From assembly GCF_041886205.1 (NCBI RefSeq), contig NZ_CP169029.1: a stretch of 64,000 nt of DNA. One strand, 5' to 3'. The DNA is from Escherichia coli. GTDB lineage: Bacteria > Pseudomonadota > Gammaproteobacteria > Enterobacterales > Enterobacteriaceae. The notes below the pieces were generated by a model. The model ran no database searches. It saw nothing but the letters and a program-made list of their open reading frames with translations, and was not told the DNA's origin. The position numbers and the translations under genes are program-made. Of this stretch, positions 4,462-8,432 are shown one piece after another (positions within the stretch are counted from its first letter, which is position 1; every line of letters begins with the position of its first letter).

Positions 4462-5017
4462 GACAGTCTTAGTCTTTAAGTTGAGAAGGATGGGAGAAAC
4501 TTGCTTTCTGGGCGCACTGCCGGAAAGCGAATCCGGTATTACGAAAGTGGTGGTGCCTCGCTCTAAGGATAGGTGACATCGAAAAAGCGTGCAGAGGAAT
4601 GTGTGCTTGTGTCTCAGCCCAACGTGAGTGCCTGTTTTTGAGTCGTTGAGTTCTACAGTCCAAAGTGCTGAAACCATTCAAGAGTCAATTGGCGCGCATT
4701 ATACGCTGAAATTAATCCAAAAGGAAAACAAAAACAGCGTTTCAAAAAATATACAACTTGTTAGACAATAAATTGTTATCAAAGATTTAACGTTCCAGGG
4801 AAAAGGTTACGCAAAAACTTCACTGTTTGCGCAACGTCTGGTGCCGAAGTTGTCAGTGTGAGGATAAGTGAAAGTTCATCCGGTGTATAAATATATCATC
4901 GCTCAATTGCTACAGTTAAAATAATTTATCGCGTTATTTGTCTGATTTTGTTTGATTTTTGTTTAATTGGTTAGATTGATATATGCTGATAGTTGGCATG
5001 ATAAATAGGTATAAAGA

Positions 5018-5227
5018 ATGGGAAATCGGACAAAAGAGGATGAACTGTACCGAGAAATGTGCAGAGTTGTCGGTAAAGTTGTGCTGGAAATGCGCGATCT
5101 GGGGCAGGAACCAAAGCATATTGTTATCGCAGGCGTATTACGTACAGCATTAGCCAATAAACGCATTCAGCGCAGTGAGCTGGAAAAGCAGGCGATGGAA
5201 ACCGTCATTAACGCACTGGTAAAATGA
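5018..5227 (+). CDS. fumD: Small protein FumD (YdhZ), putative fumarase D
   Basis: 69-aa ORF MGNRTKEDELYREMCRVVGKVVLEMRDLGQEPKH.. at the position between pykF and ydhY expected from conserved synteny. Confidence 0.75.
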   Translation: MGNRTKEDELYREMCRVVGKVVLEMRDLGQEPKHIVIAGVLRTALANKRIQRSELEKQAMETVINALVK

Positions 5228-5230
5228 CCA

Positions 5231-5265
5231 TTCAGGATGAGGCGGTAAGCTTCATCCTGATATTC
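5231..5265 (+). terminator. Candidate terminator after fumD
   Basis: 9-bp stem tcaggatga/tcatcctga with 11-nt loop immediately after the fumD stop; only a weak T-rich tail. Confidence 0.35.
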
Positions 5266-5467
5266 TTGCTTCAGTTGCGGTCCAGTTAATCATTCTAAAT
5301 AACAACTGCTGAAATTATACGAATTGCGGTATGTATTTTAATTTATAACGATAATATTATTTTTATTTTCTGCAATGAACGTCACAAATAATTGTCGCTT
5401 AAGTTAAATTTATTTTAAATGATAATAAATATCAGTTCACTTATAATTTCTTGCTTTGTAATTTTAA

Positions 5468-5481
5468 TTGATAACGATCAA
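5468..5481 (+). promoter_or_regulatory. FNR-type binding site, perfect consensus TTGAT-N4-ATCAA, upstream of ydhY
   Basis: Sequence ttgataacgatcaa read directly; sits in the AT-rich fumD-ydhY intergenic region about 200 bp upstream of the ydhY start; the ydhY operon is reported to be FNR-activated. Confidence 0.6.
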
Positions 5482-5682
5482 TGTTAAGGGTTCAGAATAA
5501 TTACATTATTTTTTCTCCTAACCATAAAGGATTAGTTTATCGGCGTTAAATCTTTTCTCATACACTATCGGGTTAGGGAAAATATCTGGTGTTGGGGACA
5601 GAGTCAGCAGCGTATTAGTTGAATGCTTAATATCAGGCTGCTGAATTGTCAGCACTGTGTTTGCGAAGAGGATGCGAAATAA

Positions 5683-8432
<2,750 letters not shown>

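Follow-up and report, generated by a model that had tools for sequence, protein, structure and literature searches.

The ydhYVWXUT operon of Escherichia coli encodes a predicted Fe-S/molybdenum oxidoreductase system, and its promoter, PydhY, is known from strain K-12. Myers 2013 (PLoS Genet 9:e1003565, PMC3688515) placed the operon in category 1, the directly FNR-activated class, with an FNR site at -42.5 and a peak at 1,752,688 in chromatin immunoprecipitation with sequencing (ChIP-seq); the start site used there is credited to Partridge 2008 (Microbiology 154:608), whose title also names regulation of the operon by NarL and NarP. The present analysis concerns the control region of this operon in a 64,000-nucleotide stretch of E. 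coli DNA (NCBI RefSeq assembly GCF_041886205.1, contig NZ_CP169029.1), hereafter the window, in which the spacer between fumD and ydhY occupies exactly positions 5228-5682 (455 bp, 32% GC) and carries a perfect FNR box at 5468-5481.

Iron belongs to the described inputs as well. The regulation published for ydhY is a Fur-dependent, RyhB-independent activation (Banerjee 2020), with ydhY ratios of 0.07 (fur-/wt), 1.0 (ryhB-/wt) and 0.11 (fur-ryhB-/wt) in Table S1 of that study and a Fur ChIP-seq peak at ydhY in both CFT073 and MG1655; ydhY and ydhV are also members of a Fur iModulon. The frdA promoter, with which ydhY appears to share its basic organisation, is likewise activated by FNR (site at -45.5; Myers 2013, PMC3688515), the FNR site lying just upstream of the -10 region, and follows the same logic of nitrate repression, exerted through a high-affinity NarL 7-2-7 site which straddles the start at -4/+6 (PMC4549865).

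The comparison with these systems showed that 5228-5682 is very probably the control region of the known ydhYVWXUT operon, the perfect FNR box being the class II site of its FNR-dependent promoter. PydhY of E. coli K-12 is the same locus, with an FNR box identical to that of MG1655 at 1,754,678-1,754,691; the box is the already published promoter, and because the two loci coincide the finding as such was already known. The initial annotation, which was made from the sequence alone and had singled out this box, was thus essentially right. The new detail is that NarL/NarP and Fur-like sites stand at fixed distances from the FNR box across related species.

FNR box and probable transcription start

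The elements that define the promoter and its transcript are the following.

5468..5481, no strand assigned: FNR box TTGATAACGATCAA, class II activator site at -42.5 (exact consensus, conservation, published ChIP)
5504..5509, plus strand: probable -10 hexamer CATTAT, placed by sequence geometry; CA(C/T)TAT across Escherichia and Citrobacter
5517, plus strand: probable transcription start (5516-5517), from the FNR centre at 5474.5 plus 42.5
5517..5682, plus strand: 5' untranslated leader of ydhYVWXUT, 166 nt, from the probable start to the annotated ATG
5683..6309, plus strand: ydhY coding sequence, first gene of ydhYVWXUT (open reading frame list, annotation)

The sequence TTGATAACGATCAA matches the TTGAT-N4-ATCAA inverted repeat at 14/14 positions. 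It is the sole exact TTGATN4ATCAA in the 64-kb window, for which shuffling gives an expectation of 0.07, and when the AT-rich spacer itself was shuffled 20,000 times with its dinucleotides preserved, just 63 of the shuffled sequences contained an exact consensus. The ydhY ATG at 5683 follows the box centre (5474.5) at a distance of 208.5 bp. The initial annotation had described an exact consensus at 5468..5481 about 200 bp from the start codon, and both observations hold: the motif is unique in 64 kb and conserved in 29 orthologous loci, and the distance was measured as 208.5 bp. It had further proposed that such a distance implies either a long 5' untranslated region (UTR), with a start some 40 bp past the box, or additional regulatory elements between box and gene. 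Each of these was supported, since the published position of -42.5 leads to a UTR of about 166 nt and the interval contains a NarL/NarP 7-2-7 match at 5519-5534 together with conserved leader blocks.

The published data were placed on the window with an offset of 1,976 bp between U00096.2 and U00096.3 at the locus. In the supplement of Myers 2013 (PMC3688515) the FNR motif is given as TTGATCGTTATCAA at 1,752,702, with a PatSer score of 14.78, and the FNR peak at ydhY was called by three ChIP-seq callers and by ChIP on microarrays (ChIP-chip); the published FNR peaks fall at about 5477-5495 of the window. The sigma70 ChIP-seq peak of the same study, at 1,752,642, has a signal of 46.9 under aerobic and 177.4 under anaerobic conditions, and corresponds to about 5541, some 25 bp downstream of the probable start. 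The ratio of expression in the fnr mutant to that in the wild type is 0.25 for both ydhY and ydhV (Myers 2013, PMC3688515). The ChIP-seq peak and the FNR-dependent expression by which the initial annotation had wished the site to be judged are therefore both present in published data, the latter with a fnr-mutant/wild-type ratio of 0.25.

Because the published FNR site is centred at -42.5, the start is placed at about 5517, which the position of CATTAT fits (5516-5517), and a start at 5517 gives a 166-nt 5' UTR. According to published work, under anaerobiosis an FNR dimer at -42.5 recruits RNA polymerase to the weak probable -10 hexamer CATTAT (5504-5509), and transcription from about 5517 then produces the 166-nt UTR that precedes the start codon of ydhY at 5683. 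NarL/NarP, Fur and H-NS/StpA would be three more inputs that converge on the same 130 bp.

Conservation was assessed by a scan with one genome per species, which yielded 30 orthologous loci from clades of Escherichia, some 20 species of Citrobacter, and Leminorella and Limnobaculum; the third codon positions of ydhY, with a mean pairwise identity of 0.59, served as the neutral yardstick. All 25 Escherichia/Citrobacter loci have the exact FNR box and the Budviciaceae a version with one mismatch; altogether the box is conserved in 29 loci of four genera. The distance from box to ATG is 139-242 bp in every orthologue, and the long leader is for this reason regarded as ancestral. The spacer as a whole was found to consist of conserved blocks set apart by neutrally evolving sequence, the identity being 0.22-0.62 upstream of 5420 and within 5603-5642. 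The mean pairwise identities of the blocks are:

5420-5434, Fur-like box: 0.87
5468-5481, FNR box: 0.92
5504-5517, -10 CATTAT and start: 0.83
5517-5534, CCTAACCATAAAGGATTA: 0.78
5571-5577, GGTTAGG: 0.79
5643-5682, last 40 nt before the ATG: 0.75-0.96

The Fur/FNR/NarL module is kept by the Budviciaceae loci and by a second copy of the operon in Citrobacter, both of which lack fumD upstream; as its presence does not depend on fumD as the upstream gene, it belongs to ydhY. The second copy was observed in Citrobacter sp. NCU1 (contig 92), where a diverged ydhY operon with 88% protein identity and no fumD upstream has kept the FNR box and a weaker Fur-like box at the same spacing, together with a shortened leader. 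In the literature examined, no statement was found on the conservation of element spacing and leader blocks across genera.

Nitrate, iron and AT-rich DNA at the promoter

Two putative operators and two features of the AT-rich DNA surround the FNR box.

5519..5534, no strand assigned: putative NarL/NarP 7-2-7 operator TAACCAT-AA-AGGATTA, heptamers centred at about +6 and +15 (sequence match, conservation)
5420..5434, no strand assigned: Fur-like 7-1-7 box TGATAATAAATATCA, centred at about -90 (motif match, fixed spacing, nearby ChIP summit)
5273..5591, no strand assigned: AT-rich "promoter island" (Panyukov and Ozoline 2013, entry 1752593_318 ydhY/ydhZ, mapped by offset)
5371..5394, no strand assigned: block TG..A-N6-TCACAAATAATTG, conserved in part, its right half-site CRP-like (20 Escherichia/Citrobacter loci aligned)

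A scan of 5482..5682 for NarL/NarP heptamers, suggested in the initial annotation, returned the 7-2-7 match at 5519-5534, in keeping with the published NarL/NarP regulation. The sequence TAACCAT-AA-AGGATTA agrees with TACYYMTnnAKRRGTA at 12/14 positions, one of three such matches in 64 kb, and closely resembles the idealised TACCCCTAAAGGGGTA. It is kept in place in all loci and comes closer to the consensus in Limnobaculum (TACCCCC-TT-AGAGGTA) and Leminorella (TACCTCT-TT-GTTGGTA), at the same position. On the strength of motif and conservation it is highly likely that the NarL/NarP operator lies at 5519-5534 (+3 to +18), where the bound regulators would most probably block the promoter in the presence of nitrate or nitrite.

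The Fur-like box TGATAATAAATATCA agrees with the Fur 7-1-7 motif TGATAATnATTATCA at 13/14 positions and is the sole match of at least 12/14 in 64 kb; only one of 2000 shuffled versions of the AT-rich core scored as high as 13/14. Its agreement with the 19-bp Fur consensus is 14/19, and that consensus alone is uninformative here because 433 of 2000 shuffles reach 13/19, only the 7-1-7 form being specific. The box is situated 47.5 bp upstream of the FNR centre in all Escherichia/Citrobacter loci and 49.5 bp upstream in the Budviciaceae. The Fur ChIP summit of CFT073, at 1,910,890, is 18 bp from the box centre (1,910,872) and 65 bp from the FNR centre. The box at 5420-5434 is thus likely, as far as can be judged from its sequence and position, to be the Fur site behind the published activation, and Fur at about -90 would most likely mediate the Fur-dependent, RyhB-independent effect. 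Such an input would confine an iron-expensive enzyme complex to iron-replete cells. From -90 Fur may contact RNA polymerase or may relieve silencing by H-NS as at ftnA; that it works by countering H-NS is suggested by this analogy and is given somewhat less than an even chance. The published but mechanistically unexplained Fur activation thereby gains nucleotide-level candidates.

The initial annotation had spoken of a 450-bp AT-rich leader. The AT-richness is real, 5262-5516 upstream of and around the box having 24% GC and the quoted run ataatattatttttattttc being located at 5351-5370, but the term leader applies only to the last 166 nt, the transcribed 5517-5682, which has 41% GC. Of the binding proteins proposed for this DNA, H-NS is supported by published data: ydhY-T is H-NS-bound in the Grainger, Kahramanoglou and Oshima data sets and is induced 2.5-fold by SlyA (Curran 2017), the ydhY/ydhZ spacer is among 78 H-NS-associated promoter islands (Panyukov and Ozoline 2013, PMC3661553), and the FNR ChIP-chip signal at ydhY rises from 0.29 in the wild type to 1.82 in the hns stpA mutant (Myers 2013 Table S7, PMC3688515). 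The 24%-GC DNA at about 5270-5516 would accordingly be the H-NS/StpA target through which FNR occupancy is limited, an effect that is itself published. The H-NS nucleation motif TCGATAAATT is not enriched. The proposal of IHF binding was not supported, no IHF core consensus WATCAANNNNTTR being found in 5228-5682, and neither was that of a separate small transcript, for which there was no Rfam match and no convincing terminator. The only IHF core match in the window is TATCAAAGATTTA at 4777-4789, in the pykF-fumD spacer.

Two further observations concern the DNA upstream of the Fur-like box. The block at 5371-5394 lies at about -128 to -140, and its TCACA hardly varies among the 20 Escherichia/Citrobacter loci aligned. 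In sequence the block resembles a CRP site of which one half is good; several species of Citrobacter have a perfect palindrome there, ACAAATATTTGT. An 18-nt direct repeat, 94% identical, places ATTTTAATTTATAACGAT (5335-5352) 126 bp upstream of ATTTTAATTGATAACGAT (5461-5478). The upstream copy looks like a decayed duplicate of the FNR site's left half with its T-rich flank (TTTATAACGATAAT, 11/14 to the box), and the stretch 5335-5352 is not conserved outside E. coli.

Several points weigh against this reading of the control region. The start site and the NarL/NarP positions are second-hand or inferred, and no independent genome-wide start-site data were found in the literature search. The Fur box consists of one 7-1-7 unit only; at 54.65, the ChIP peak of Fur is small beside the hundreds to thousands at most Fur-repressed operons, with preTA and adhP similar to ydhY, and the operon mRNA of MG1655 was below detection in the conditions of that study (Banerjee 2020). 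The absence of H-NS, Fis or IHF enrichment overlapping the FNR motif (Myers 2013 Table S6, PMC3688515) is awkward beside the hns stpA effect. Without FNR, the promoter region is transcribed in vitro better by sigmaS than by sigma70 (Maciag 2011), so that another start within the region may exist. A strong promoter-like sequence, ATGATA-17-TATAAT, was observed at 5419-5447 (10/12, with a perfect -10), its -35-like hexamer falling within the Fur box. Transcription from this sequence would begin upstream of the FNR box; its TATAAT is E. coli-specific, and it might explain the FNR-independent, sigmaS-preferring transcription in vitro (Maciag 2011).

The idea that the FNR box serves some other transcript, i.e. 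a small, antisense or divergent RNA, with ydhY being read from a promoter near its start codon, draws on this sigmaS preference in vitro without FNR (Maciag 2011), on the unusual 208-bp gap to the ATG and on the many promoter-like sites of the promoter island, the perfect TATAAT at 5442-5447 among them. It is nevertheless considered very improbable: the promoter scan gave no match between box and ATG, the sigma70 ChIP peak at about 5541 is anaerobiosis-dependent, the operon is expressed in an FNR-dependent manner (Myers 2013, PMC3688515), the long distance from box to ATG recurs in every orthologue, the TATAAT at 5442-5447 is confined to E. coli, and Rfam gave no match in 4600-6000. The probability that the exact consensus is a chance match in AT-rich DNA is close to nil. 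AT-richness favours A/T-rich palindromes, and the decayed left-half copy 126 bp upstream would suit such an origin, but an expectation of 0.07 per 64 kb, an occurrence in 0.3% of spacer shuffles, an exact or one-mismatch match in 29 orthologous loci with neutral flanks, and occupancy in vivo (Myers 2013, PMC3688515) all speak for a functional site.

The untranslated leader of ydhY

Three segments of the leader are referred to below.

5571..5577, plus strand: GGTTAGG, inverted copy of CCTAACC at 5517-5523 (conservation, inverted repeat)
5588..5656, plus strand: hairpin-prone segment, inner stem 5604-5611 / 5637-5644 (predicted folds)
5643..5685, plus strand: near-invariant translation-initiation block with the Shine-Dalgarno sequence AAGAGGA (5666-5672); identity 0.75-0.96

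The leader is non-coding, since the annotated N-terminus of YdhY has been detected by N-terminomics (PMC13245402) and a stop codon directly precedes the ATG. A search of 4600-6000 on both strands against Rfam 15, at an E-value of 1 or better, gave no match, and the fold of the whole leader is unexceptional (z = -1.3). RNAalifold, applied to 26 leaders, returned a weak consensus of 13 pairs with a covariation term of -0.54, comprising a 5'-terminal helix of 3 pairs that lies inside the NarL box, the base of the central hairpin and a weak G-U-rich helix over the Shine-Dalgarno region, predicted as the hairpin 5657-5662 / 5670-5675. CCTAACC (+1 to +7) pairs with GGTTAGG (+55 to +61) as the closing helix of the minimum-energy 5'-domain fold predicted for 23 of 26 orthologues, around an interior of 53-84 nt whose sequence differs among them; in the structure evaluated for covariation 97.7% of the cells are paired, and double changes occur in only 2 pairs and 4 cells. 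Each orthologue folds a central hairpin of its own, with z from -3.1 to +0.3 and a neutral interior (identity 0.48); C. koseri has lost this hairpin by deletion, and the Budviciaceae lack it. The translation-initiation block is recognisable even in Leminorella and Limnobaculum. The sequence AAGAGGAUG in the block before the ATG resembles the CsrA motif obtained by systematic evolution of ligands by exponential enrichment (SELEX) and is a candidate CsrA site.

Strain CFT073 (NC_004431.1; phylogroup B2) differs from the window at 25 of the 455 spacer positions, none of them in the Fur, FNR, -10 or NarL elements, and shows an uncompensated A5575T within GGTTAGG. The operon was expressed in CFT073 and below detection in MG1655 under the same conditions (Banerjee 2020).

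Two further candidates were considered and discarded. A 19-codon open reading frame, MLNIRLLNCQHCVCEEDAK (5623-5682), is cysteine-rich, is intact in Escherichia and has no Shine-Dalgarno sequence; its TAA stop directly adjoins the start codon of ydhY (TAAATG). As a leader peptide it was rejected because stop codons break the frame in two Citrobacter lineages (C. braakii and the second copy of NCU1) and because only Escherichia has the start codon. As for an attenuator, UCAGCAGC, GCUGCUGA and UCAGCA can form alternative hairpins in an arrangement that is Escherichia-specific and has a poor U-tract, and the terminator-like hairpin at 5639-5654 is weak, 6 bp long and Escherichia-specific as well. 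The terminator scan and the ortholog alignment revealed neither a terminator/antiterminator pair nor a conserved leader peptide in the leader.

The conserved segments of the leader could act either as RNA or as DNA. Control at the level of RNA, through a 5' helix that opposes 5'-end-dependent decay or through a Shine-Dalgarno block that binds CsrA (AGGAUG) or a small RNA, would be consistent with the retention of the long leader in all orthologues, with identities of 0.79-0.96 for GGTTAGG and the last 40 nt as compared with 0.59 at third codon positions, with the closure of the minimum-energy fold by the 5' helix in 23/26 orthologues despite interiors of 53-84 nt, and with a few helix changes that are wobble-compatible or compensatory (two CG-to-UG, one CG-to-UA). 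The helix pairs are almost invariant, however, so that their conservation proves nothing; besides this, there is no Rfam family match in 4600-6000, the whole-leader z is -1.3, RNAalifold yields only 13 pairs (covariation term -0.54) and no convincing covariation was seen, CFT073 carries A5575T in GGTTAGG uncompensated, the central hairpin is missing from C. koseri, by deletion, and from the Budviciaceae, and the overlapping NarL site already accounts for CCTAACC. Such control is rated as rather unlikely, and so, at about the same level or slightly below it, is the presence of any functional RNA element in the leader. Slightly more credit, although still at a doubtful level, is given to the view that GGTTAGG (+55 to +61) and the TACCC...GGGTA repeats of Citrobacter are further NarL/NarP heptamers, which would extend the operator from +3 to about +65. 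In its favour, the opposite strand of GGTTAGG reads CCCTAACC, with the TAACC core of the left heptamer of the 7-2-7 site, several Citrobacter leaders have a 20-nt insertion directly after the 7-2-7 site which is a TACCC/GGGTA inverted repeat, and NarL occupies several sites near the frdA start, including the 7-2-7 at -4/+6 (PMC4549865). As a heptamer GGTTAGG nonetheless agrees with TACYYMT at just 4-5/7 positions, below the scan threshold of 6/7, and the conserved bases run on at the heptamer's "wrong" side (GGTTAGGGC), mirroring GCCTAACC and not the heptamer alone. It may be, then, that GGTTAGG is a further NarL/NarP heptamer, the 5' arm CCTAACC being already covered by the NarL site.

The 20-nt insertion is found at the equivalent of 5535 in five Citrobacter loci (L012, L013, L030, L018, L019), as the inverted repeat TACCCGTGTTTAGGGTA or TTCCTGTCTTGAGGGTA; it resembles an extra NarL-type heptamer pair and forms a sub-hairpin of its own in the predicted folds.

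As a speculation to which a low probability is attached, the 5' helix and the Shine-Dalgarno block of about 40 nt would together form a post-transcriptional control point (stability, CsrA or small RNA), Fur at -90 would be a direct co-activator or anti-silencer, and natural variants of these elements, of which A5575T in B2 strains is an example, might explain the difference in expression between CFT073 and MG1655. Two conserved leader blocks in any case remain beyond the known regulators, and they could clarify how an iron- and molybdenum-expensive enzyme is rationed.

Genomic setting and comparison with described systems

The window is part of the E. coli chromosome, in the orientation opposite to that of MG1655, the identity of the locus being given by a 100% match to E. 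coli chromosomes and by the annotation fumD / ydhY / ydhV. A 901-bp query around the FNR box matched 5,425 of 5,426 complete E. coli genomes, the matches being annotated as fumD and ydhY. The spacer corresponds to NC_000913.3 1,754,478-1,754,931 of MG1655, from which the window strain differs at 8 of 455 positions, none inside the Fur, FNR, -10 or NarL elements. The promoter core 5415-5540 was found in 5,381 of the 5,426 genomes, only 20 of which are at least 99% identical to the rare window allele; at 5416, 5491 and 5502 the window carries T in place of the C of MG1655, CFT073 and the majority of strains.

The genes around the spacer are arranged as pykF (-), ynhH (-), fumD (+), ydhY (+), ydhV, ydhW. 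The neighbouring features upstream are:

5018..5227, plus strand: fumD (ydhZ) coding sequence, upstream neighbour (open reading frame list and RefSeq annotation of an identical E. coli record)
5232..5270, plus strand: probable intrinsic fumD terminator, with a stem of 12 bp and, after it, TATTCTTGCT (terminator scan, inverted repeat)

The position of fumD upstream of ydhY is syntenic in Escherichia and Citrobacter, and the gene is absent from the Budviciaceae loci and the second Citrobacter copy. The pykF-fumD spacer also contains YnhH (b4817, 64 aa), a RefSeq-annotated small protein at 4469-4663 on the minus strand, directly upstream of pykF.

Because a characterised promoter was rediscovered, the finding alone changes nothing, and the comparison across Escherichia, Citrobacter and Budviciaceae is of modest added value. 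What it conveys is that the inputs for oxygen (FNR), nitrate (NarL/NarP) and iron (Fur), with their base-pair-fixed spacing, have travelled with the operon, even beside a different upstream gene.

The 5'-terminal stem-loop of the ompA leader reportedly stabilises its mRNA. The helix of ydhY would share with stem-loops of this type that it is predicted to begin at the first transcribed nucleotide, as modelled in 23/26 orthologues, but in ydhY the pairs are invariant and offer no proof by covariation, and the 5' arm doubles as a NarL site. The ftnA promoter of E. coli is reportedly Fur-activated and H-NS-silenced. It has in common with ydhY a Fur-dependent, RyhB-independent positive control and Fur sites situated upstream in AT-rich DNA. 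In Table S1 of Banerjee 2020, ftn and ydhY stand in the same "activated" class. At ydhY, however, displacement of H-NS by Fur is a conjecture, and ydhY has a single 7-1-7 unit and, placed between this unit and the promoter, a class II FNR site.

With the promoter islands the ydhY/ydhZ spacer shares its AT-richness and its listing as H-NS-associated and as horizontally acquired; most islands are described as transcriptionally silent, whereas the ydhY spacer contains a defined, regulated and conserved promoter. In comparison with frdA, the putative 7-2-7 operator of ydhY is located slightly further downstream (+3 to +18), and ydhY extends the common scheme by a Fur box at -90, by upstream DNA that is AT-rich and bound by H-NS, and by a leader of much greater length.

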